Assembly: GCF_026210795.1 (NCBI RefSeq)
Contig: NC_089431.1
Location: forward strand, 2,232,001 to 2,296,000
Source: Rhizophagus irregularis
Lineage: Eukaryota
Length of the DNA: 64,000 bases
Direction of reading: 5' to 3'
The position numbers were made by a program, and so were the translations under genes. Numbering within the stretch: the first letter of the stretch is position 1; every line of letters starts with the position of its first letter. Positions 10,788-51,281 of this stretch are shown here, one piece after another. Below the pieces are notes generated by a model that was not told the DNA's origin, did not search any database, and saw only the letters and a list, made by a program, of their open reading frames with translations.

Positions 10788-13700
10788 TTATATCTTCGAG
10801 CTTATGGAGCTTATGGTATCCTATATAAACATTTGAATGTGAATGTTAGAATAGAAATGTTACATCTGTTATTGAATGGGAGGCATTCATTTACATACAT
10901 TGCGTCCATCAGGGATAGATATTTCTTCTATAGGATTTTTTACAGGAAATTTATTTATAGTGGCAATGAGATCGTTCATTCCTAATAACATTTTACATAA
11001 ATAAAAAATAAATTTACAGATCAATAAACTTTTACGTTAAATTAATAAAAATATAGATGATGACATACTTAATGGTTTCGTAACATATTCATCCATTCCT
11101 GCAAAAAGACATTTCTCTCGATCTCCTATCATTGCGTGAGCCGTTAAAGCAATTATAGGAACATGACCACCGGTTTCTTGTTCAAATTCTCGTATCTTTT
11201 GTGTGGCTTCAAATCCACCCATTATAGGCATTTGTACATCCATCAATATCTAATTAACAACCAGGGAACGTTAGTAATTTTTTTTTTTAATAACAAATAT
11301 CGATATTATATGTAAGACTCACAAGATCATATCGTTTAGCTTTAAAAGCCTCAACGGCCAATTGTCCATTTGATACTATTTCAACTCTATGGCCAAATTT
11401 CTCTAATATTTTAACCGCTAATTTTTGATTCACAATATTATCTTCGGCCATTAAAATATCTAATGGTTGTTGCCTTGCAAAATCACTTGGAACCGCAGCA
11501 TGAGACTCAAGTGCTGGCAATAAAGCATTCATTAAATCAGGTAAATTCGATGGCGTACTACTATATGATGTGATACCAAGATCAATACAATTTTTCATAT
11601 TTAAGTTAGGTATCTCTGGAGCTAAAAGAACTATGGGGATGTATCTTAAATGTGTAATCTCTCTTAATCTTTCAACAATGCTTAAATCATCAACAATTAC
11701 TGTGTCGAACAAGGGTGTATCTGATTTTCGAGAAGCTGTTATAAGTGCGGCCTCCTCTACAGAACAAGCAATTTTTGGTCTAAGGCTTAATTCTTCAATT
11801 ATACTGACAACACCCGTTTTATCATGCATTGTATCAATAAATAAGACATGCCGACCATGCCAAGGATTCATTTTTTGTTCTATTGTTTCTCGGCTCATTG
11901 TACCCAAAGTTACTTTAACTGTAAAGTAGAATTCAGATCCATGTCCGTATACGCTCTTTACCCATAAATCACCACCCATTAAAGACACAAGACGTTTTGA
12001 TATTGAAAGACCTAAACCAGTACCACCATATTTTCTTGTTGTTGAACCATCAGCCTGACAAAAAGTATCAAATATCATATCAATCTTGTCTTCCTGAATA
12101 CCTATACCAGTATCACTAACGCAAAATTCCAAAATTACTCGATCATCCTCGATTAATTGTGTGTGTACTGAAAGAACAACTTCACCTTCAGTGGTAAACT
12201 TGATGGCATTTCCGATCAGATTTGTTATTACTTGTCTTAAACGTAATGGATCACCGATAAGTTGATCAGGTATTCCATTATCTACATCATAAATTAAATC
12301 TAACTTCTTTTGATTTGCTTTAACCGCAAGTGTTTTAAGTACTCCAAATACGGCTGATCGTAGTGAAAAAGGAATTTGTTCAATAGTCATACGACCGGCT
12401 TCAACTATATTTAATGAATTTAAACATCAAATAAATTTTTAAGTTTCACTATTAAATAAAATAACGATAGATACAAATTGCTCGCTTAACTTACTTTTTG
12501 AGATGTCTAAAATATCATCGATAATTGTCAACAAAGAGTTGGCTAATGTACTTACAATCATCAGATTTTCGCGTTGCTGTCTTGTCAATTCGGTTTCTAG
12601 GGTTAACGTAGTCATTCCAATAATGCCATTCATAGGTGTACGAATCTGTATTCAAAAATTGATCAAATTACAAAATGTGCCTTGTTATTTAAAAAAAGTA
12701 AAAAAAGTAAAACAAATAATAAAATACCTCATGTGACATATTAGCTAGAAATTCACTTTTACTTCTATTAGCTAATTCTGCAGCTTCTCTTGCAGCTGTA
12801 TTCTTTTGAATACTTTCTCTTAAGTTATAAACCATTTGATTGATTTTTGTTTTAAGGGAATCCATTTCACCCGAAGCATCAACAGTAATATACTGTGTGA
12901 AATCGCCATCCGTTGCCGCAGCGGATATTTGAGCAAATGCACGGACCTGCGAAGTTAAGTTGGAAGCCATAGTATTGACGTTAGATGTAATTTCTTTCCA
13001 TGTACCTTTAACATCTTTTACTTGTGCTTGGACTCCAAGTTTTCCCTCTGTACCAACTTCACGAGCTACACGTGTTACTTCAGCAGCAAAGGTAGACAAC
13101 TAATACAGTTTTGTTATAATTTCGATATCAAAAAAAACATTTATATTCAATTTTTTTTTTTAGCTAATAAATTTAATCCATAAAGATAAACATATAATTA
13201 CCTGATCTACCATAGTATTTATAGTATTCTTCAAATCCAAGATTTCTCCTTTGACATTCACTGTAATTTTCTTGCTGAGATCACCACAAGCCACGCTCTT
13301 ACAGACATTTGCAATATCACGTACTTGTGCCGTAAGGTTAGACGCCATGGTGTTGACATTATCCGTTAATTCCTTCCATGTACCACCAACGTCTTTGACA
13401 TGCGCTTGGACTCCAAGTATACCTTCTGTACCTACTTCACGTGCTACACGTGTTACTTCTGCAGCAAACATACGAAGTTGGTCAACCATGGAATTTACTG
13501 TATCTTTTAATTCAAGTATTTCGCCTTTGACATCTACACTGATCTTTTTGCTCAAATCACCGCAAGCTACAGCGGTCGTGACCTCGGCTATAGACCGTAC
13601 TTGCGTGGTTAAATTAGCTGCCATAATATTTACATTATCCGTTAGTACTTTCCACGTGCCTTCCACATCTTTAACAACAGCTTGGCCTCCAAGTTTTCCT

Positions 13701-16235
13701 TCGGTTCCCACCTCTAAAGATACTCGTGTTACTTCCGTAGCGAAAGTTTGTAGTTGATCTACCATAGTATTTATTGTATTTTTAAGATCCCATATCTCTC
13801 CTTTTACGTCAACTGTTATTTTTTTACTTAGGTCACCGCGTGCTACTGCTTTTGATACATTTGCAATATCACGGACCTGAGCCGTGAGATTTGCGGCCAT
13901 AGTATTGACATTGTCTGTTAGTTCTTTCCAAGTACCACCAACATCCTTTACTACGGCTTGTCCTCCTAATTTACCTTCTGTACCTACTTCTCTTGCTACT
14001 CTTGTTACCTCTGCTGCGAATGTTCTTAATTGTTCCACCATAGAATTTACAGTATTTTTTAAATCAAGTATCTCACCCTTAACATCTACAATAATTTTTT
14101 TGCTTAAATCGCCTTTGGCTACAGCGGTAGTGACCTCGGCAATCGATCTTACTTGAGTTGTAAGGTTTGCAGCCATTATATTCACGTTGTCAGTAAGCTC
14201 CTTCCATGTTCCACCTACATCTTTAACTACAGCTTGGCCACCTAATTTCCCTTCAGTTCCTACTTCCAAAGAAACACGAGTAACTTCAATAGCAAATGTC
14301 TGCAATTGATCTACCATAGTATTGATGGTGTTTTTCAGATCTAAAATTTCTCCCTTTACATCCACAGTAATTTTTTTACTTAAATCACCACGAGCTACAG
14401 CTTTTGATACATTTGCAATATCACGGACCTGAGCCGTGAGATTTGCGGCCATAGTATTGACATTGTCCGTAAGAATCTTCCACGTTCCATCGACTCCTTG
14501 AACTTCAGCCTGACCACCAAGCATACCCTCAGTACCGACCTCACGAGCAACACGTGTGACCTCGGCTGCGAACATACGCAATTGTTCAACCTAAGAATAA
14601 GATAGTTAGTAAAATTACAAACCAAACACAATCTACTTATTATAAGTATAAAAATAAGTACCATAGTGTTGATTGTTACTTTAAGTTCCAAGATTTCACC
14701 TTGTACAGGTACGGTAACTTTTCTTGATAAATCGCCACAAGCAACAGCTTTACATACTGTAGCAATATCACGCACTTGATTAGTAAGATTTGATGCCATA
14801 AGATTTACATTGTCGGTCAAATCTTTCCAAATACCGCCAACATCTTTAATATTCGCTTGGCCACCTAATTTCCCTTCTGTACCGACTTCAAGCGATACTC
14901 GGGTAACTTCAGTAGCAAAGGTTTGTAGCTGTTATTGAATGGATGAAAATAAAAAATTAAAAATTAAAAATTAAAAATTACAGTGTGATTAATCTTCAAA
15001 CCCTTTAAAAAGGATCTCAACTAAGTTAGTTAATTTAAAATATCTTACCTGATCCACCATAGTATTTATCGTATTTTTAAGGTCTAAAATTTCTCCTTTG
15101 ACATCAACAGTAATCTTTTTGCTAAGATCACCTCTAGCAACAGATTTAGATACATCAGCAATATCACGGACTTGAGCGGTAAGATTGGCAGCCATTGTAT
15201 TGACATTATCAGTTAATAGTTTCCACGTTCCGCCAACACCTTGGACTTGGGCTTGTACGCCCAATTTACCTTCAGTACCAACTTCATGAGCAACGCGAGT
15301 GACTTCCGAAGCGAATGAATTTAGCTGGTCAACTGCAAAATATATGTATGTATATATGATAAGTATAAGACCAATTCTAAAAATGTATATATTTTTTAGA
15401 AATACTTACCCATAGTATTAATAGTATTTTTCAAAACAAGAGTTTCTCCTTTTACTTCAACAGTAATCTTTTTACTAAGGTCACCGTGAGCGACAGCTGT
15501 ACATACTTCCGCAATATCTCTCACTTGTTTTGAATGGTTACTAGCCATCATGTTCAAATGGACCATCATATCCCTGAAATCACCTTCTAAATTTTCACTT
15601 TTAGATTGTACACCTAGTTTCCCTTCTTCGCCAACCTCGCGAGCAACATGAATAAGTTCAATAGATACTCTGTCAATTTTGTCGACCATGGTATTAATCG
15701 CGTTTCTTAGTGTTAGCATTGGGCCGGATGCAACGGGACAAATAACTCGTTTTTTAAAATCGCCACTAGTAACAGCCAAAGCAACGTTTGTGCATTGATC
15801 CAGACATTCCAGACAAACTCGATCACCATGTTCCAAGGAGGGTGGTGTATTAGGAGAACTGTCTGAATTTGAGTCGTGAATCTGATTATTTATATGATTA
15901 CTATTGATTTGATTGGTTTGACATTTATCAGAAGGTGGAGCTAATATAGCGGTTTCATTAGATTGTTTCACTTGGAGACAATCTTCATTATTAGTAGCGG
16001 GCAAAGAACTGTCTTTAATAATGACTACAGAATCATTTTCATTCAATAGTGATTGGTAACGAGCGACCTCCTCTTCCAGGTAAATATGTTTTTCTAGTAG
16101 TTTTCTTAAAACAGAATCAAATTGTTCAATTTGTTCATTACGTTGTCCTTGATAACGCACTGTCTTGCAATATTCCACATTGCCATCATTAATGTTTTGA
16201 AGGACGTCGGTAACGTATCCGAGAACGTCCGTCAT
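10788..16235 (-). CDS. NIK1: Group III hybrid histidine kinase (poly-HAMP, HisKA, HATPase, receiver domains), NIK1/OS-1 family
   Basis: Nine ~92-aa HAMP repeats plus a terminal HAMP; H-box [22 protein letters not shown] boxes [23 protein letters not shown]; receiver AEDN...ILMDVQMP...TKP. The stop is at 10887, or at 10788 if a last 78-nt intron is spliced. Confidence 0.95.
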
Positions 16236-22820: not shown

Positions 22821-23099
22821 CACTGGTAAAAAAATGGTCTATCCTACACATATCCTACACATATCTTACATATATCGGGTACTCAAAATGTAGAAAATCA
22901 TACACAAATAATACACATATCATATACATATCGGGTACTTATATATATAGTATACCTATCGAGTACCTGATATATGTATGATATATATATTAGTACCCGA
23001 TATGTGTATAATATGTGTATTATTTGTGTATGATTTTCTACATTTTGAGTACCCAATATGTGTAAGATATGTGTAGGATAAATCATTTTTTTACCAGTG
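22821..23099. mobile_element. CACTG-type (CMC/EnSpm-like) MITE, long hairpin
   Basis: Termini CACTGGTAAAAAAATG...CATTTTTTTACCAGTG, 3-bp TSD GTA on both sides, and subterminal CACATATCGGGTAC motifs. Confidence 0.85.
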
Positions 23100-23979: not shown

Positions 23980-24275
23980 AGGACCCCGGATATCTAATAT
24001 AAAGGTCATAATGGACTTTTGGCCAAAAACACCCTTTTTGCTGAAACTCAAAAAATCGTTTTTTGTAAATATCTCAGCATCCAGTAATTCAATTTTAATG
24101 AACTTTTTTTTATTTTGTAGCCCTCATATAGCTCTACAATTTAAAAAAAAGTTCATCAAAATTGGACTACTGGATGCCGAGATATTTACAAAAAACGATT
24201 TTTTGAGCCCCTGAAAAATGGGCCAATCTGCTGAAAGTGTGACTTATGACCTGTTTTGGAGATATCCGGGGTCCT
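23980..24275. mobile_element. MITE with 8-bp TSD (superfamily uncertain; hAT-like TSD length)
   Basis: TIR AGGACCCCGGATATCT...AGATATCCGGGGTCCT; ATAACATG is duplicated at 23972-23979 and 24276-24283; internal palindrome of about 55 bp per arm. Confidence 0.85.
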
Positions 24276-25020: not shown

Positions 25021-25294
25021 TCCTGAATAATACTAATATAACTCACAAGTAAACTTTAAGTACTGAAGTAAAAATACATTTTATAATATAACTCTGTCAA
25101 TATTGAAGCCAGAAATTCGATTTTACTATCATTAGAATCCTCTCATTGAGACGAATCCAATGATATAAATTTTATTAAAATCGAATCACTGGTTGTGTTA
25201 AAAATAGGGGTATGTGGGATAACAAATTTTTAAAAATACTTCTGTAATACGCAACTTTTGAAAAATTTTAATATAAACTCTACACAACTCAAAT

Positions 25295-26560
25295 GTGAGT
25301 GTATCACAAATCAAGGATATTTATAACGCCTTTGTTTCCGCAATGCGTTTCAAAAAACTGACCTCTGCACAGTTAGTATATCTACATTCTGCTGTTATTC
25401 TCCCAAAGGTTCACTTTCAATCGCAAGTCACGTATATTCCTAAAATAACACTTGTACGAACCATTGGATCATATTATATTCTACACAAGAAACTCCTTTC
25501 TCTTTCCCGTACTTTTTCTTCTTTGGCTTTGTCATTAAAATTTTTTAATGAAGATACCAATCCATATACATATTTGTGTCAATGACTTATTTTTCGTTTT
25601 ATGGTTTAGGTTTCCCTATATTCCTCTGGTTTCACGTATTCCAACTGGATTATCATCACTTTCTGTACCTTTCAAGCAGCTCTGAAATAGCTTTCTTCTT
25701 TAGACAAAATTTCAAATTTTTCTAAATGGAATTCTGGTCAAAGGTCAATTTACCACAATTGGATTTTTCAGACTTTACGTATCCTTTCTGAAAGTGGTTT
25801 AAATATCAAGCTTCCTGTTGCCCTCTGTCTGGATTTAATGCCTTCTCATTCTATACCACTGGTCACTCTATCATCTGAACTTGCAAATTTTGAGAAAGCT
25901 ATTTGGTTATTTTCTCCACTTTGGTGTCTCATGCAACTTGTTGATCCTTTTCACCAATTTATTTATACTTGGATGGATCTTAAAAAAATGAACTTGGTTT
26001 CTAAAACTGGCAAAACCCCTTTCTGGTTTATTCATCTTATCAACATACCTGATTTATTTTCTTATTTACTGGCTGTTAGTACGTCTGTACAATATCCTTC
26101 CTATTTATTAAAATTACAAGACTCTGCCCTTGCTACTATTGACGAGCACTTTCATCTTGAAGCCCGCAATCAGTATTATTGGATCGTGGAATTAGATGGT
26201 GCTAATTCTATGATTTTTGGACGTGTGTTTTACACTGTTAATATTTATAGCACTCGGATTGTCTATTTCTCGCATTGGATTAACTCTTCTTCTAATTGGC
26301 CCTTTATAACTCCTTGTCAAGATTGTTCCTTGCATGACGAATCGTTAGTAAATGGTCTTCTCCAAGTGTGATCTGTTAGATCCAAATTGTCTTATCGATC
26401 CTGTTTAACGTTTCTTCCTTCTTATAGATGTTTACAATTATTTCATATGTCTTCACATATAGATTCTACTTGTAATAATATTAATTTATTTCTTTCTCCT
26501 TTTTTGTTATGTTCCTTTTTTAAAATTTTATTAGAATATTCTTATGTCCATATTAAAGCT
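25295..26560 (+). pseudogene. Decayed fragment of LINE ORF2 (post-RT region), related to the element at 27930-36114
   Basis: KKLTSAQLVYLHSAVILPKVHFQSQVT aligns with AKLSSKQVVYLHNAVLIPKLEYRMQVT; GKTPFWF with GRIPYWY; YWIVELDGANSMIFGR with NWIVTLDDLGSPIFGK. Multiple in-frame stops. Confidence 0.85.
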
Positions 26561-26662
26561 CTAATCGGGTCAGTTCTAATCTGATAACCTGGACTGAAAA
26601 TTCAGATTGGTCCAGTCTGGATTGATGCTTTAACCCAGACCAAAATCACTGGTCAAAAACCA

Positions 26663-27911
26663 AGGTAAACATAGCATGAGCTTGAATTTTATTAATTAAT
26701 GCCGAAGTAACTTTAGAGAAACACAGAGTGATCTAAAAAGTATCGCAACAAGTGCAGAACTAATAGAAAAACAAAGAACAAATAATCTTCCGAAATTACA
26801 AATAAGAAAAGCTAAGATTAAAAACCCCACCCTCTCTATATAAATAACTACGGCTACTCCCCCCAAATATATCTCAAAATGAGTAAAGTCGACTATGCTA
26901 TACGTAACCCATCCAGCGCCGTACCCACTCCTAGAATCGGTAAAGAACCTCCGAGCTACCATTAGCACTATCAAAAATGCCTAAAATTCAATTTCCCCTA
27001 TTTGACTACATACTATGGATAACAAACCTATTTCACAAAGACCTCTGGGAACTTTTTAGTGTCATGCAGTCCAGCCGATGGGGAACTTTTTAGTGTCGTG
27101 CAATCCCTGAAGGGACACCCACCTCATTTCGAACGATCCCAAACGGAGGACACCCACCTCATTGCGAACAATCCATCGACCTAAGATCTACCTAGATAAG
27201 TCAATCCAATGATAGTCCATCATGTGACCACCTTGATCGGCATACTACAAAAACTGCGGTACCCAACCTGTCACCCCCTTATCACCCCAATGATGATCGA
27301 TTTTGAAAATTGTAACACCAAGCCACCATGACGATCAAATTTTCCAGTATCCCCCACCCCCAAAGAAAATAAGGTTACACCGAAAAAAGTGACCAAGAAA
27401 AACAAAAAGCAAAAAATAAAGACATAAACCTCAGGAAAACTCGAAGTGCAATGAGAAAAACCTGAGTAAAATTCACCAAACATACACCTCAACTCCGTCT
27501 CCTTATTTTAGAAGACTAACTCCCCAGTTAACAACATCAACTAGCAAGAAATACGTTGGTCAGGAGCTCCTTCCAAGAAATACCAGTCCGGCCTGCGAAC
27601 CACTTGGCCAGTTAGACTTTAAAGGCGTAGGAACCAAGACGCACTACTTTTCAACCTTTCAGAAAGCCCAGGGGAACGTTCGTATGGAACTGCCATCTTA
27701 CAGTATTATTGGTAACTCCAAGCACTACGATAACGGTCCTAACTCAATATAAGCCGTAAGGAGTTCAGGCGAAACTAAAGACCTCAGTAATAACTTTATA
27801 TAACATCGAAAAGTCCTTTTACTATCACTCAAGGCAAAAAATCCTCATATTTTTCATCCATAACTTCATGGGAAAAAATGGGCAGAGCCCAACGGGGGAG
27901 AAAGTACGATC
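26663..27911 (-). mobile_element. 1.25-kb non-coding retroelement (non-autonomous, or a 5'-truncated relative of the adjacent LINE)
   Basis: Flanked by the direct repeat ATCACTGGTCAAAAACCA (26645-26662 and 27912-27929). Its 3' end (ATGCTATGTTTACC on the minus strand) and a block at about 26860-26940 are homologous to the LINE 3' end. Confidence 0.75.
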
Positions 27912-28269
27912 ATCACTGGTCAAAAACCAGGCAAACGTGGCATAGTAGCCTTTATCTTTATTAAATTTATTCGAACTTTGACAATTTACAAAAATAAAAA
28001 GAAAGATATAAAAATAAAACTAACTAAAAACAAAGCTATATAGTCTCCTAAGAAAAAATAAAGTAAAAAATTAATCTAAAAAAAGAAAAATCGCATTACA
28101 CTAAATTTCCCCAGATCTTCCCCCTTGATATATTCCAACCAAAGTAGAAGCAACTATGCTAACAAAATAACGAATAGCGCGCCCACTATAAAAATCGACA
28201 CTCCATCCTGCAAAAGCTGTTATTAAGTAGCACCGTTAGACGACCCATAAAACCCGAAAAGTGATTAAA

Positions 28270-31200
28270 CTAAGGCAAACTATATTTCATCGAGTTCTTC
28301 AACCAATCGGTTCCGGAGTCACGTGAATCGTGTAGGGTCGGAGGTGGTAAAGATGAGTAAGGTATGTACATCGACAAAGGCAGATTGGATGGCTTCGGAG
28401 TAGTTTTCAACTTATAGGTAATGTTCATCGCATTTTTCCATCTACTTTTCTCATAAGAACGCGGATTCCAGATTCGTCTTCTGAATTTCTGGACAAAATT
28501 GTTATGAATAGCAGCGATAACTTTAATCGCAGAAGTTCTCGGAATGGATAAATCAACAAATAAGTCGATGAAAAGTTTGGGTAAGCAACCACGGATAAGG
28601 GCGAAGGAGGACCAATTTGTAGAAGAAAAGGACCAGCATGAAAGAGAAGTAAGTTTAGCTATAAATGGAGTAGGATCAGTATCAACCAAATTACTCGCTT
28701 CCAGAAGTTTGGAAATCAAATGATTTTGATAAGATTGGAGAATTTGCTGCATAGGCAGACGTCGTCTTTTGCACATAAAAAGGTGCATCAGGTCTTCCAT
28801 GCGGTCGATACAAGAACGGCAAGTTAATTCGTCCATGTATAAGTCTGGTCGGGTCCGTTTAAGCTTTTCCAGTGTAGGCAAATCATCCAAGAAAAGTTTG
28901 AATTTAAAGGTTAGGTGTCTTGAAGCGTGCTCGGAGTAAAAGATGCATCATGAGAGGGCTTAAAATTTAAGGTGAACCAAGTAAGTTCCCAGTCAACAAT
29001 ATAATCTATATTAATTGATAATAAAGTAATAAAGTGAAATCGCGTTAAATTTAACAAATCGCGCATTAGCTGCGTTTGATAATATTGTTTTAGGAGGTGT
29101 CGTGGATTAAATTCACAAACAACATCATTGTCATAAATTAAGACAAAATCATGGGCAGAGGCCAGGTCCATTCCAGAGATCAAAATACTGGTTGACGCGG
29201 TATGAGCAGTATTGGCCAAAAGGAGTCAGCAAAATCGTTTAAGTAATTGCCAGAATGAGCTTTAACTTTGACGGGAAGGACAGTCAAATTTTTTGAGAGG
29301 ATGGTTCGCTCGATAATAGCCCAAAGTTCAAAATTTGTAGTTTTATAGTACAAACGACTATTTGAATAAATAGAGGAAAAACAACTTCGAGACCATCAAT
29401 GGCAGTTTGCGAGTCAGTATAAATAGTAACTTCTGAGTCACGTGGAGAAATAGTTAAAACTGCATAAATAGCAGCAGCCTCAGCACGAGAAGAAGAGGGA
29501 TTATCACGTATGAGGCCGTGAGCGTAAGTGGCGATAGAGTTAGGAAAACCTGCATCGGGGAGCTATTTGCATCAAGACCAGCCCATAGAGAACGATCGGG
29601 AGTGCTTAAATTAATAAGAGACCCATCAGTGAAAAAGGTATAACGCGAATCCGAGGAAACGACCAGCGGGGAATTTGCAAAGACAGCAGCAGCCGAGGAT
29701 TCAATAGTGACAGGAGTATTAGGGGCTATAGCGGTATCTGCAGAATAAGAATCGGAATCAAAATCCAATCTACTATAATAAAGACGGACACCATCTTCTA
29801 TATCAGCCCAGGTAAAAGGTGAAGTCACTTCAGAGGTAGTACGTCTAATTCGTTCATTGGTAGTGGGCAAAATAAGCGAATGGCGTAGAGAGACCGTAGT
29901 TGTACATAGGGTTAAATCAGCATTCCATTTTTTGGAAGGAGGTAGGGGAATATGGGCAGCGCAGCCAGGGCAAGGAGAAAGTCGAATAAGATCTCCAGGC
30001 GAAGATTCACAATCAGGAGAGACCCAATGGACAATGGAACAAGTACCACGACTTGTTTGGACCAAAAGTTGTTTGCCGAAGATGGGAGAACCAAGATCGT
30101 CTAACGTGACAATCCAATTTTTTGTAGTGGGAGGAGAGGATAGACAAGGTTCCAATTCATAAAATGAAGAAGCATTCGTATGCAGAGTAATAAACTGATC
30201 CAGCAAACGATTATTGGAGTCAGAAACAGTGGTAGCTTGTTGGATATCTTTATACCAATAAGGGATACGGCCAGGGCCACGTCGTCCAACCAAATTATCA
30301 TAGTAAGCCTTCCAGGAAATTAAATGAGTTCCTTGATGGAGTAACAAGCTGAGATAAATAAAACAGTTGTCGTTTACGCAGGATGGGAAAATAGGCTTTA
30401 AAGGCTTTAGGCGTCGTGCATTCAAATAAAGGAACGCATCCATCTATCAAGGACAAATTTGGAAGCTTCGATAATTGAGTGTGAAGCAACCGAAAAGGAG
30501 TAGAAGACAAGAGAGCAATAGTGCATGCGATATAATCTTTTTTGAAAGAAAATAGAGAAGACCATATAGACCAATCTTTAATTAAAAGGGGAGAAATAGG
30601 AATCAAAGAATTATATTGAATTAAACTCAATCTATAAATAAAAAGAGATTGAATAAAAACAGAAGAAGAGTTAGCCATTAAAAATAAATTAGTAATATGA
30701 CATTGTCGTTGATGAGCAAACAAATTAATCAAGCCCAAGGCATGAGACAAAAATAAAATGGAATTAGGTAAAGAACGAGAAAAGTTTGCTTTATGCTTTA
30801 CGACAGATCGTATACTTCTCGTTATTAGGTGACAATCAGATTCAGATAAGTGAGTAACTTGCATCCGATATTCAAGTTTCGGTATAAGGACGGCATTATG
30901 TAAATACACAACTTGTTTGGAAGAGAGCTTTGCAGGTCGGATGGTCGCAGCAAAGGAGCAGCATTCGCGTTTGAGTGCTTTCTTAGACAAAATCACGGGA
31001 GCTCTTAATGTTAAACCAAACACCTAAAAAACGAAAAGAAGTTGTCATGGAAATTGGGGTAATAGTAATGGAAGGAACACTATTTAAAAAGGATAAATCC
31101 AAATTAAAAGTGATAGGGGATAAAGTGGAATTTGGAGTCAAAGGCAACGAATTAGTGATTAACACATATTTGTTATGATTGGCAGAAGTGTTATTGATCT

Positions 31201-33818
31201 GATAAAATTCTTCAGTAATGGATAACATAAATTCCATGCCAGCTTTTGACGAGGAAATAAGAGTAGAGTCATCCATAAATACTAAATTATTAATCTTCAA
31301 ATCAAGAGAAGGACTTGAAGAATCAATTAAAGACGGTGTAGAAAGAACATAAGGGTCCATCATCTCATTCTTCAGAATAGTAAGTAAGGGATCAATATAA
31401 ATGACCCATAAAAGAGGAGAAATAACTTCGCCTTGGTCAATACCAATGCGAACCCTATAGGCAGGCGTAGATCCATGAGCAGTGAAAACGCGATTAGTGC
31501 GTTTCATAAAAAGTGAAAGAATAAACTTAACAGCGGAGGCTGGAAGACGTATACGTTCTAAAGCGAAACGTAACATCATTAAATCAACAGAATCAAAAGC
31601 TTTAGAAATATCTTGGGAAAGAATCCAAAGTGGGTTTTTGTTGATATCAGGCATCATGGATAATAGATTCTAAAGTAATAATAGGGTCGCGGCAAGAACC
31701 TCCAGGAAGACCAGCGAAGTTACCACCTTTAAGAACATCATGTGAAGCCATAATGGTAGAAAGGCGATTATAAAAAAGTTTGACAAGAGATTTCCTAATC
31801 ACTTCAAGTATGGTAATAGGGCGAGTATTTTTTAATTGACACTTCCATTCGTGAGGTTTGGGGATAGGAAAAACCATTGCTTGTCGCCATAAATCAGGAA
31901 TATCAGCTTTGGAAAGACATGCTTGAATCGGAAAATGAGAAGTAAAGCCGAGGTACGAGATCCGAGATGTTTGAGCATTTCATAAGTAATCATGGAAGGA
32001 CAGAGGCTTTACCGTTAGGAGTGGAAGAAACGGTGGATAACCATTCATCAAGGGTAGGGGGATTCATTAAAGAATCATAGATGGAGGAGGACACATCATC
32101 CATAGGTTGATAGGCAGAAGACCATTTATCAGGTAGTGTATCGATAGATACAGGAGGAGTGGACTTTATAGGTACAAAGTTTTGGAAATGGTTAACAACA
32201 GCATCATCTATGTCCTTAGGAGCAGTCAACAACTGAGGTTGAGAAGGATGGTCGATGAAGACACGGTCCAAAGTGATACGGCGACGGAGTGCGAAAGCGC
32301 TGAATCAATAAAGGAGGAAAGGTCAGTTTCAAAATTATTATTCCTATCGTCCAAGTGAGCACGGATGGAGGAGTCTTGGAATTCTTTTTCTTGAAGTAAA
32401 TGAAATCCCCGTAAGGATTTTGAAATATTGGATAAATCATCAAGAAGTGACTTGAAATTATCTTGTCGACATGATGAAAGAGAAAAGGGCAGAGTAGGAA
32501 TGAAAGTAAAAATTTTCTTATATAATTGAAGAATGTTCTGAAGTCGATGCAAATGTATAGACCACTTATGTTCATGAGCAGCAGAATAAGTTAAAGGATA
32601 TTTGCGCAATAGACGTATCGAATGCATTAGGCGATTTAAAAACCGATAATTTTGAGTTAAAATTTCCAGATCTTTAAGGAACCTAGGAGTATAATTATTG
32701 CCAACAGTAGAAGAAGGTAAAGTAGCGTTGGCGGATTTAAGGATTCGCGATTGAAGGTATTCGCACATCTGATTGATATGCCAGGAGGAAAAGGTTGATG
32801 GTGAAACATCACATAAGGCATCAGCTTTGTCAGCAAATTCCGTCCATTGAGTATCAGTTACAGAATCAAATTTGAAAATGCGACGGGTTTGGCGCTTAAG
32901 TTGACGAGCGCGAGCCAATTTGGTAGAGGCAAAAGTAAAGACATATCATAATATGTGATGACAGGGTTGTGATCAGATGTGCAGATGTCTTGAGCATTAA
33001 AAATACAAGCAGTAAGAGCAAATCCTTTGAGAAGATGGCAGGGACCATACATAATCAACACGAGTAATGTGGTCATTGCGTTGAAAGGTACCTAAAGAAT
33101 CGGAAAGATTAATGGGTGTAAAATCTTCATATCCATGGGAAAGGAGATGAAAAAGTAATCGGTGTATATGTTTTGAAGCAATTTGAGGTTGATTAAAATA
33201 AATAGGATAATATTTATCTAAATGCATATTAAAATCGCCACAAACAGCATGATAAAAACCAGCTTGTTTAGTAAGGATAAGTTGTTGAATAAGCAAATCA
33301 ATAGTGTCAGTGCGCAGAACACTTTCAGCAGGGGGAGGGATATAAATAACAAATATACGCAATTTAACATTGCCTTTGAAATATAAATCAACAGAAAGCA
33401 GTCGTGAAGAATGGGATTTAAAGTCTTGTACATGTGATGCAAGAGAATTTTCTATAAATAGGGAAACACCACCAGAAGAGAGAATTTGTTTAGAAGTATC
33501 CAAATTCGAAGAAAACACAGTATAATTAGAAAGTCGTTTGGATAAAAACTTCATTTGTTTAGGGTGGATATGAGTATCAACAATACCACCAAAGGAAATA
33601 TGTTTTAGAGAAAAGAAGGTAGAAATCTCTTCTAATTTAGTCTGACCATGCATTTTAAGGCCATTGACATTAAAAGAGGAGATATTAAATGAATTGGGGA
33701 TAGGAGAAGTGTTACTAGGAGAAGAAAATAATGATTCATGTGAAAAAAGTTCAGTAACATTATTGGGGTTGGGAGGGTTTCGTACAAAGGTGTCATAATT
33801 AAAATTATTGTCCGACAT
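28270..33818 (-). pseudogene. LINE ORF2 (frameshifted): AP endonuclease, reverse transcriptase, RNase H, C-terminal zinc knuckle
   Basis: APE motifs SFNVNGL, GDFN, RVDY, SDH; RT motifs RPITILE, QDISKAFDSV, GIDQGEVISPLLW, FMDD, FRFLG; RNase H motifs FTDGS, RAEAAAI, YTDSQ, VKAHSGNYLNDFAD; knuckle CRSC-x8-H-x3-C. Confidence 0.92.
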
Positions 33819-33887
33819 TAAAACACAATGATAAAAACAGTCGGGGAGATAAGATTTGAAGAAGAAAATTAAATAGAAGAAGCTGAA

Positions 33888-35964
33888 TCAGCTTGTTCTA
33901 GGGGAAGCACCACCAATGGAGCTAATGAATTGTTTGATATGACCAGTAAGTTGGTCCAATTTACTTTCAATAACGACTCTACTATTTTTGAGATCATTAA
34001 TTTCTTCTTGCGTGGAGGAGATAGGGGTAAAAGGAGGAGCATTTGGAGAAAGGTGAGAAGAAGGAAGTGATGTGTCGGGAATAATAGTGAATGTAGGCGA
34101 AGGTCGCGTTAAAATGCTTTTGGGGGGCAGTGAAGATTTAGCGGAAGACTGAATATTAAGCGGAAGCATGAGTTACGGGGGATCTTCTTGCATGAGGTCG
34201 GTTCGGGTTCGTTGGGCGCAGGAAGTGGATCGAGGCCAAGGTGTGATTCAATACGAGTCATCCGTTGGTCAGCAAGTTCAAGAGCGGAGATGCGTTTGTG
34301 AAAGTTGGCAACTTCACATTGTAATTCTCGCAAAAGGTTTAAAATGTTATTAGCATCATCAGGAGATAATGCAGAGTTAGGAGTTTGTTGAGGTAAGGGA
34401 CGTGCTTTAGAACGAGAGGAGGAAGAAAAGGAGACCGATCGTTCTTTGCTATTATGGCGGGCACGATGAGAGGTACTGGGAGGGGGTTTGTTATGATTAT
34501 TATCATTATTAGTGCGGTCGTGGGAAACGTTATTGGCTCGTCCAGAATTGGAAGCGGATCGATCTTTAGATTTGGAGCGAGATCGAGAGCGAACGTGCAT
34601 TGGCAGCATTAGAATTGGAGCGATGAGGTTGATTAACATTAAATCGTTCTTTAAGTTTTGCAACAGGGTCGCGAGTGCGACTTCTACCTCTGGTTTGTTT
34701 GAGTGGGCAAAAATTTGGAGCACAACCTAATTTGCCACATCTGTGACAAAGTTTGTTAGTATTATCTGGGAGGACCAGAAAAGCACTTTGCCTTGGAAGC
34801 TGACAGTCTGTTCCATAGCAGCATCCATGGTTTCTTGGGAATTGAAGGTGACGTAAGCCCATCTTTTGGGCTTGTAAGATTTAGAGAAAGCGGCACATTG
34901 ACAGCTTTGCGCCGAAGTACAGTAAGGGGAGCCAAATTGATATCCTTAACATTGGGGGGAAGTTGGGTGAGGGTGGCAACGTATTGACGGCGCGCAGCCT
35001 TTTGATCACAGAATAAGAACGTGGAGTAATTCGAGGCAGGTGGAGAAACATGCGCAGCCCATTGGTCGGTAAAACGAGCAATAGAATCGGCGTGATCATA
35101 AACAATGCGGGCTTGCTGAACTTTGGCATTAGGCCTGGAGAAAAGGCGGCAAGAGGTGATATTACCAAATTTCTTAAAATAAGCCATGAGGTTGTCTTTT
35201 TTAATGAAGAAAGGGATATCGGTAACTTGGATAGCCCGGAGATCTTCGTGGATCGGAGTTGGCGAGGGTCATGTGCATGAAAGATTAAGTCAGGGAACTC
35301 AGGATGGGTGGAACCAACGCACAGATCGCGTGCTTCAGCTGTATGGAAGTGGATAACGAGGCGTTTGGCTTCACCAGAACCAGTCATACGTGCTTTTCCA
35401 GTAAACGACTCGTAAGTTTCTAAAAAAAGATTATTAACAGCCTCAGCAATGGGCTTTAATTAAGGTAGGAATTTCTTAAGAGATTCAGGGGCAGGCATTC
35501 GGTGCAGCCGCAGCCTGAAAATCTTCTCTGGTTATGGCGAGGTCGCACTGGATCTGGAGTATGATCGTCATCGGAGCGCCGTTGGTATCCAAATTGGGCG
35601 ACGCGTTAGGGGGTTGTTGCAAGTCTTTGTTTAAAGGTGCGTACGTGGACGCGTCCACATTTCCAGAAGACGCGACGTGACTGGGCGCAGTTGGCGCAGC
35701 AGATTTTTTCGGGGAGGAGGTCAAAGTATTTTCGCCAGAGATATTTTGTTGAGGAGAAGAGGAAAATCCATCTACTCCAACGTCAGCCGTCTGGTCATCG
35801 GCAACGTAAGTCTTCTTCCATAGAATTTTCGGTAATCGTACGATTACGTTTCTGCTGGACAGTGTTTTCACCATCGGAGCTTGAGTTATCGGAGTTATTA
35901 TTTTTTCGTTCTTGACGGGAAGCTTTCCTACTGTTAGGGTTATGACACGCCAGGCTCTCGGCAT
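33888..35964 (-). pseudogene. LINE ORF1 (frameshifted): RRM-like region, Cys knuckle, Ser/Arg-rich region and coiled coil
   Basis: YFKKFGNITSCRL (RRM-like), CHRCGKLGCAPNFC, RSRSRSKS and NILNLLRELQCEVANFHKRISALE, located directly upstream of ORF2. Confidence 0.75.
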
Positions 35965-36588
35965 AGTTACCAGACGTAGTAGAGGGCTCGAGTTGGGAAT
36001 ATATAAAATATAAAATTTTATTAGTAGTTTGTATTATTTTTTAAAAATAATAAAAAATATTTTTCGTCGAAAATTTCGTTTTTGAAAAATTCAGGAGAGA
36101 GTTCACTAGTCACTACTGGTCAAAAACCAATATATCGGGTAGCAGATATGTATTAGATATGTACCCAATATGTGTAGTATTAATGCAGAAAATCGGGTAC
36201 CCAATATGTGTAAGATATGTGTAAATATATATATCGTCTACATATCATTTACATATCATATACATATCGGTACCTAATATGTATATGATATATATATTTA
36301 CATATATCTTACACATATCAGGTACCCGATTTTCTGCATTAATACTACACATATCGGGTACATATCTGATACATATCTGCTACCCGATATATTGGTTTTT
36401 GACCAGTGAATATTCGGTCTGGTCTGGTCCGGTTTCGGATTATAAATCTAACCCAGATTGAATTAAACAGGTTGGAACCAACCCGGACTGATAAATATTT
36501 TTGCAATGGTTTATATTAAAACCGTTGCGATTATTTAATTATTAAATAAAAAAATGTTGCGTAATGTTTTTTTAACATATTATTTATA

Positions 36589-37863: not shown

Positions 37864-38309
37864 TATAATAAATATAAACTATAATTATTTATAATTAAAA
37901 AAAAAAAATTTGATAGCTCAATTGTTAGGTCATAAAACATAATAACTGAGTTATCAGTTGTTTAATATCATATATTAATGGTAATATTGATAGCTTTGAG
38001 TAACAATATATAATGTGTTAAACTATACATTAAAGTTGAACAACGCATATATTAATATTATGTATTGGTATACTCAATATACGGGTGTTAATAATTATAT
38101 TGAACAACTAGTTAGTATTGATCAACATGTACAGTATACTGGTGTGAATCAACACTTACTAAACTTCCTGATAAAATTAATTGTCTAAACTGTTTTTTTT
38201 TTAAAAAAAAAGATTTTCTAAACAAATAATGATTAGCCAATAAAATTTAATTAATCATGTGATAAGGGGTAACGATGACATTACACGTTTAATGAATAAA
38301 TTCTCTCTT

Positions 38310-38660
38310 AATAAAAAATGTTGCAAAACATTTTTTATTATTAATTTATCAAAAAAAACATTTTGCAACATTTTTTTTTAACGATTTTAATAAAAAATGT
38401 TGCGAAACATTTTTTATTTTTAATTTAAAATAAAAAATACTGTTTCGCAACAGTTTTTTTACTATTTTAATAAAAAACGTTGCAAAATGTTTTTATTATT
38501 AATTTATTGAAAAAAATGTTTTGCAATGTTTTTTTAACGATTTTAATAAAAAATGTTGTGAAACGTTTTTATTATTAATTTATTGAAAAAAAATGTTTCG
38601 TAACGTTTTTTAATGATTTTAATAAAAATGTTGTAAAACGTTTTTTATTTACCATTTTGC
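38310..38660. repeat. AT-rich direct/inverted repeat array (AAAAAATGTTGCRAAACRTTTT)
   Basis: Several copies in both orientations; the same motif occurs at about 22040-22110 and 36550. Confidence 0.7.
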
Positions 38661-50993: not shown

Positions 50994-51281
50994 GTTTGCT
51001 AACTTTTGATTCAGTGATCAGAAAAGGACAAAATATAGCTCATTGGAATCGTTCCAACAAGACGAATCTAATGGTAGTAAAATTGCATTTCTAGATTAAT
51101 AATTAATAAAAAATTAAATAAAATATAAATGATATATTTTTATTTTTATATTCTACTTAATTTCTCATCAAGTATTAATTCTAGAAATGCAATTTTACTA
51201 CTATTAAATTTATCTTGTTAAGACGATTCCAATAAGCTATATTTAATCCTTTTCTGATCACTGAATCAAAAGTTAGCAAAC
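50994..51281. repeat. Long inverted repeat (about 110-bp arms), preceded by 11-bp AATCRGTYACC-type repeats at 50885-50960
   Basis: GTTTGCTAACTTTTGATTCAGTGATCAGAAAAGG...CCTTTTCTGATCACTGAATCAAAAGTTAGCAAAC; the internal AGACGAATCTAATG motif recurs at about 25150 and 40165. Confidence 0.8.

Follow-up and report, generated by a model that had tools for sequence, protein, structure and literature searches.

Long interspersed nuclear elements (LINEs) that encode an apurinic/apyrimidinic endonuclease (APE) integrate through target-primed reverse transcription, in which the second strand is cut at a staggered position. One of them, Tx1L of Xenopus, uses an internal site and is not known to carry an RNase H. 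Most target-specific LINEs fall into three groups: early-branched, Tx1 and R1 (PMC4640811). Transposon-targeting examples found in our survey of the literature were all from animals. In the accessible part of PMC4494074, the crocodilian pair Tx1-Mar and SINEU, an APE LINE and a non-autonomous partner, prefers one non-autonomous DNA transposon, Mariner-N4_AMi; tandem copies sandwich a duplication of ~16 bp, and the preference is leaky, with 13–90% of copies at the target. In Xenopus, Tx1 (Tx1L) uses Tx1D, a non-autonomous piggyBac family, as a multicopy target (accessible parts of PMC4494074 and PMC6719617). Among fungi, non-LTR elements that form arrays through site preference are represented by CNL1 of Cryptococcus and MoTeR of Magnaporthe (accessible part of PMC12810828). 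Here we describe a locus whose arrangement parallels the two animal cases, in a 64,000-nucleotide stretch of Rhizophagus irregularis DNA (NC_089431.1, positions 2,232,001 to 2,296,000; hereafter the window). An APE-type LINE and a 1.25-kb element occupy one site in the terminal inverted repeat (TIR) of a CACTG MITE (miniature inverted-repeat transposable element), and copies elsewhere point to a preference for the same target.

Structure of the composite locus

The 15-mer ACTGGTCAAAAACCA matched the window exactly at 26648, 27915 and 36115 on the plus strand, and inverted at 36393–36407 on the minus strand. These were the only 4 matches with up to 2 mismatches allowed; shuffled sequences gave a mean of 0.23, and 0 of 100 shuffles reached 4. 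The direct copies separate two inserts, which lie in the same orientation in the left TIR of the MITE, at one site ±1 nt. Excision of 26663–36129 in silico left a 295-bp CACTG...CAGTG element with arms of 138 nt and 93% complementarity, and the whole composite is bracketed by AAT at 26644–26646 and 36409–36411. A first-pass annotation of the window had reported three direct copies of the 15-mer and the restoration of a single CACTG MITE, with its AAT duplication, on removal of the inserts; both observations were reproduced. The CACTG termini and 3-bp duplication (AAT here; GTA at 22821–23099) are those of the CMC/CACTA type, and CACTG termini are known from a fungal CACTA element (accessible part of PMC12810828). 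The features of the locus are as follows.

26644..26646, plus strand: left AAT of the MITE's target-site duplication (from the sequence, and from Logan empty sites with one AAT)
26647..26663, plus strand: left TIR end of the MITE (CACTG...) in its outermost copy, found by the 15-mer match and read as a regenerated target duplication; 26663 is shared with the insert boundary
26664..27914, minus strand: 1.25-kb multicopy non-coding element, likely non-autonomous LINE partner, no poly(A) tail
27915..27929, plus strand: 15-bp target in its middle copy, which parts the two inserts
27930..36114, minus strand: LINE, 8,185 bp, apparently full length, no poly(A) tail
33890..35977, minus strand: frameshifted open reading frame 1 (ORF1) with RRM and CCHC-like knuckle, ACG in place of the ATG of relatives, approximate at its 3′ end
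28270..33818, minus strand: ORF2 with APE (~33680–32960), reverse transcriptase (RT; ~31865–31000), RNase H (~29640–29210) and a C-terminal Cys/His motif, ~14 frameshifts
36115..36408: MITE body, with inner target copy (36115–36129), intact unoccupied right TIR (36393–36408) and 138-nt arms, 93% complementary
36409..36411, plus strand: right AAT of the MITE's target-site duplication
22821..23099: related uninterrupted CACTG MITE with GTA duplication, TIR one base off the target core (comparison only, n = 1)

The target duplication of the LINE measured 15 bp and that of the 1.25-kb element at least 16 bp. The range of 15–19 bp given by the first-pass annotation holds to that extent; the three further bases (ATC) are ambiguous, and may be microhomology with the 5′ end of the 1.25-kb element itself, because a second copy (metagenome locus L003, below) has GAT there after AGGT. 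Of the two possible orders, insertion of the small element before the LINE is the simpler reading. Logan contigs (8 in X1, 6 in X16) passed from 26646 straight into sequence resembling the right flank, with a single AAT, and therefore the surrounding repeat exists without the insert.

That surrounding repeat is itself multicopy, with GGACTG/CCAGAC motifs (~26560–26646 and 36412–36500), so that three levels of nesting can be recognized. Immediately to its left, at 25289–26371 on the plus strand, lies a degenerate piece of a more distant LINE family, with 29–43% identity to the ORF2 region after the RT. The empty CACTG MITE at 22821–23099, with its one-base change in the target core, is a possible escape variant (n = 1).

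Coding content and affinity of the LINE

The LINE runs from 36114 to 27930 on the minus strand and has no long terminal repeats, as judged by self-blast. Its ORF1 carries an RRM, and an ORF1-type RRM was also detected in the relative P0230. Domain searches of ORF2 returned RVT_1 (E 1e-21) and RNase_H (E 1e-10), the latter in agreement with the first-pass annotation, together with a weak Exo_endo_phos_2 match under the cut-off. An APE profile gave no significant match to PDB sequences; a low-confidence structure model of the domain (pLDDT 51) had L1 endonuclease as its top Foldseek match (E 7e-6). With an ORF1 ahead of an ORF2 that has APE and non-LTR RT, a 15-bp target duplication and no long terminal repeats, the element classifies as an APE-type non-LTR retrotransposon. 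A tyrosine-recombinase (DIRS/Ngaro) reading was dropped because ORF2 has the order APE-RT-RNase H.

Homologues came from R. irregularis, at identities of up to 100%, and from R. clarus. Against the intact public copy P0243, the window ORF2 showed ~99% identity; along 1,846 residues it has ~14 frameshifts and differs by 21 substitutions, and many of these changes may be consensus errors of the assembly. A private stop lies near the ORF2 end, where position 28271 is C in most Logan contig depth. In the APE motif (VDTH, ~33570), Asp was present in 189 of 192 motif matches among the fetched proteins. Entrophospora and more distant relatives have Glu (ET) at this position, which we take, from the L1 endonuclease, to be that of the metal-binding Glu.

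The nearest relatives of the LINE were Entrophospora and other APE-RT-RNase H proteins. The RT gave equal scores (59–62 bits) with human L1 ORF2p and with an R2 protein, and a midpoint-rooted RT tree, which kept 32 of 33 chosen rows and held no labelled clade references, gives no clade. The domain order would fit several clades. Tx1 is described as an animal group in the accessible part of PMC4494074, and RNase H is listed for the R1, Tad1 and Proto1 clades and not for Tx1 (PMC4640811); with a fungal host and an RNase H, membership in Tx1 was not supported. A curated R. irregularis library contains the families L1-Tx1, L1-R1, I, CR1-Zenon, RTE-BovB, R2-Hero and SINE (accessible part of PMC11075540), and the window family, which is abundant, is probably included under one of those labels. 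A distant APE-RT-RNase H relative from JGI (P0427, 2,618 aa) has, in the stretch that separates RT from RNase H, a weak OTU-like match under the cut-off (E 0.0015).

The 1.25-kb element and its 3′ end

Over its last 28 nt, the 1.25-kb element is similar to the terminal 31 nt of the LINE, with AATAAA, ARGCT and ATGCYAYGTTTRCC, and neither element has a poly(A) tail. The first-pass annotation had described two different retroelements. There are indeed two inserts with the same site and orientation, but because both share the 3′ terminal motif, they are better read as a LINE and its likely non-autonomous partner. The 1.25-kb element has no ORF >110 codons and is multicopy, with thousands of variant contigs in Logan (depth there was not taken as copy number). 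Non-coding, multicopy, and with a 3′ end and target in common with the LINE, it is probably a non-autonomous partner, as far as sequence features can indicate.

Two other origins were considered for this element. A truncated LINE coding region was ruled out, as blastx against 227 LINE proteins gave no match. A classical short interspersed nuclear element (SINE), with a tRNA, 5S, 7SL or snRNA head and Pol III boxes, was likewise not supported: no tRNA and no match to a simple A/B-box pattern were found, and Rfam returned nothing at gathering level, with one non-significant match in the element. Similarity of its 5′ end to the LINE was marginal (1 of 500 shuffles equal), and 3-bp hairpins in both 3′ motifs were too weak to count. 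Two short tandem duplications lie within the element at 27040–27170.

Probable target preference at other loci

Metagenomes were scanned with a pattern for the 3′ motif from which the target was excluded. The pattern was built from the two window ends, so its match in the window is circular, and its value lies in the retrieval of further copies. Ten loci were returned, two of which (L003 and L006) were real by blastn (87–91% identity); the other 8 showed no blastn similarity and were dropped as chance matches. At both real loci, TTTTGACCAGT begins 4 nt past the end of the 1.25-kb element, with a chance expectation of ~3e-7 per site at window composition. L003 reads element end, TCAATTTTGACCAGT, second 1.25-kb copy. 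In L006, the element end and TTGATTTTGACCAGT lead into a related LINE at its 5′ end (alignment score 64; maximum 47 in 500 shuffles), which is the reverse of the window order.

Gene models provided further junctions. Five of the 602 fetched proteins, representing 4 loci, read through the LINE terminus (GYYATFA). In R. irregularis, P0015 (strain A5) and P0243/P0574 (DAOM 181602) continue into WFLTS, the 15-mer in frame, as at the window junction (chance 2e-7). Beyond WFLTS they differ from each other and from the window, and P0243 continues into a 5′-truncated copy. In R. clarus, P0040 continues into LNLNSR (the L006 translation is LILTSR), and P0337 into LNF before an apparent splice. Head-to-tail fusions were also seen: 10 of 220 proteins that reach the ORF2 end run into a downstream copy on the same strand, at 7 loci (4 R. 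clarus, 3 R. irregularis). P0054 joins the start of ORF1; the fusion row for P0018 was dropped as a self-hit. Several R. clarus LINE gene models lie on common small scaffolds, one of which, 56.5 kb long, holds six; this is consistent with clustering in arrays. At a likeness threshold of 82%, at which mismatches are possible, three Logan X16 contigs leave the LINE, cross the 15-mer with the terminal C and then enter mixed flanks; a fourth leads into a degenerate second target. Scans of viral contigs and prokaryote genomes found nothing.

On the sequence of L003, L006, P0015, P0243 and the fusions at 7 loci, independent copies share a 3′ flank and form tandem arrays, the behaviour of a target-specific LINE. 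That the family has a sequence preference, taken alone, we regard as very likely, and a preference that is strong but leaky, not strict, is well supported. The metagenome and protein loci, being independent of the window, support the proposal in the first-pass annotation of a sequence preference with arrays that regenerate their target. Its further proposal, that most copies abut a TIR, has less behind it. The 15-mer does recur at other loci. Among the X16 rows listed, 4 contigs ran through the 15-mer and 4 stopped at the LINE end (24 of 717 loose-end rows were covered, and neither side is a fair count), and the junctions outside the window show the motif rather than a TIR because most are array-internal. 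The TIR is nevertheless the probable principal target, a link that rests on the window, the three X16 contigs and, weakly, P0015.

Those same junctions lend some weight to a reading in which the family prefers a sequence that is not mainly a TIR feature. Arrays would perpetuate the target wherever it was first present, in several repeats or at the elements' own junctions, and the MITE would be one of many hosts. No TIR is seen at L003, L006, P0243, P0040 or P0337, each of them a junction inside an array with proximal bases unlike those of the window TIR, and X1 contigs have a partly related target in another repeat. The window, the three X16 contigs that diverge after the terminal C, and P0015 (WFLTS, then G) instead fit transposon termini, and we consider this reading unlikely, if worth keeping in view.

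It was also considered that the 15-mer belongs to the element and not to the target. A mere intrinsic terminal repeat, raised as a rival in the first-pass annotation, is disfavoured, as the 15-mer lies within the 138-nt arms of the MITE and the proximal 4 nt vary between junctions. A related explanation is that the 15-mer is carried on the element RNA, by 3′ read-through or as a captured tail, with insertion guided by homology or largely random and a non-specific endonuclease. Three observations would be accommodated by this explanation: wherever the motif follows the LINE in R. irregularis, the junctions look the same at the visible level (WFLTS); the 15-mer is missing from about half of the X16 contigs listed; and in the APE, Asp replaces the metal-binding Glu of relatives. 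An RNA tail with random insertion, however, fails to explain insertion exactly beside the terminal C of the MITE, or arrays in both orders, and the window 1.25-kb copy bears the TIR version of the target while its relatives bear other versions. We judge it improbable.

Even less credit is given to hitchhiking or artefact, that is, one old composite spread by a DNA transposon or by segmental duplication, or a misassembled locus. Among the Logan pieces listed none spans the stretch, and the ~14 ORF2 frameshifts suggest a poor consensus in repeats. Orders, subfamilies, truncation points and species differ at the other loci, however, and the outer site is cleanly empty in Logan contigs, which makes this explanation very improbable.

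Several observations weigh against a LINE and partner that prefer the TIR end. The TCAA of L003 and the TTGA of L006 could both derive from TCGA by CpG decay, and might then reflect one ancestral junction. Both R. clarus junctions are known at protein level, degenerate and possibly spliced. The fused gene models had no control for other LINEs, and some could be nested insertions. The similarity of the 3′ motifs depends on a pattern made from the two elements themselves. In Logan, 4 X16 contigs stop matching at the LINE end and have mixed flanks, one joint (in X1 and X15) has ~21 unrelated letters past the LINE end, and in 3 X1 contigs the 1.25-kb end adjoins sequence only 9/15 like the target. 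Finally, no empty copy of the exact MITE family was retrieved, with 0 matches in viral contigs, where none were expected.

Proposed mechanism

The anatomy of the locus, the 3′ motif shared by the inserts, the recurrence of the target elsewhere and the arrays in both orders are direct observations. The model that we favour to join them, and consider reasonably likely as a whole, is that the LINE and a partner with a common 3′ end sit head to tail in the TIR of a CACTG MITE after insertion at a preferred motif. Insertion would likely proceed by target-primed reverse transcription at the motif ACTGGTCAAAA. The APE would nick 4–5 nt 3′ of ACTGGTCAAAA, and the RT would prime at the nick on a defined, tail-less RNA 3′ end. 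A second-strand cut ~15 nt away, beside the terminal C of the transposon, would give the 15–16 bp duplication, and every insertion would duplicate and so rebuild ACTGGTCAAAA. The 1.25-kb element may borrow the LINE proteins through its 3′ motif (trans-mobilization), and the ends of CACTG-type (CMC) transposons may be the main natural supply of the target motif.

After insertion, the outer 16 bp of the TIR are intact, but 9.4 kb separates them from the remainder of the arm, and the terminal C is missing from the inner copy. Because of this separation and loss, immobilization of the MITE appears more likely than a LINE that rides on it.

A broader reading can be put forward tentatively, although its parts together are rather doubtful. 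The LINE may belong to an APE-RT-RNase H lineage that is deep, fungal and separate from Tx1 and R1, in which specificity evolved independently and is aimed at the very end of CMC TIRs, where change would cost the host transposon most. As hyperparasites, the LINE and its partner would then immobilize CACTG transposons by parting the terminal 16 bp from the arm. TIR variants such as ACTGGTAAAAA would be escape forms, and the fixed Glu-to-Asp change in the endonuclease would mark the specialized lineage.

Other features of the window

A histidine kinase-like gene with 276-nt HAMP-like repeats, judged by translation only, occupies 11290–15700 on the minus strand. Further palindromic, MITE-like or fold-back repeats occur at 23980–24275, 50994–51281, 38308–38649 and 36584–36764/37690–37870/38922–39100.

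Comparison with known systems

No description of TIR targeting in fungi was found in the literature covered, Repbase Reports, subscription papers and the GitHub TE library being outside that coverage. The accessible text of PMC11075540 holds no target-site or tandem analysis ('tandem' 0 times; 'target' 0 times in the supplement tables), and the accessible parts of PMC11952901 and PMC5753468 contain nothing on targets.

If the model is correct, a fungal LINE aimed at the TIR end would be a further origin of the transposon-targeting strategy, or a large extension of its range. It would also account for the head-to-tail arrays of LINEs, and for gene models fused by mistake, in the genomes of Rhizophagus, and would make the interplay of a retrotransposon and a DNA transposon testable in a model symbiont. 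As a young family with intact ORF2 copies and a preference of 11–15 bp, it would offer material for studying how APE domains gain specificity.

The fungal systems that form arrays differ in machinery and target. CNL1 and MoTeR are R2-like and tied to telomeric repeats or to themselves; they are not APE-RT-RNase H elements, and the accessible part of PMC12810828 reports no targeting of DNA transposons for them. Xenopus Tx1 shares with the window LINE the use of a DNA transposon as a multicopy target, but belongs to the animal Tx1 clade and has a piggyBac host (accessible parts of PMC4494074 and PMC6719617). The crocodilian pair is alike in its combination of LINE and partner, its tandem copies around a duplication of similar length and its leaky preference. 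Its hot spots, however, lie at ~240 and ~830 of the host (accessible part of PMC4494074), whereas here the outermost 16 bp of the TIR form the site. In the fungus a CACTG element serves as host, the LINE carries an RNase H, and the 1.25-kb partner has no snRNA or tRNA head.

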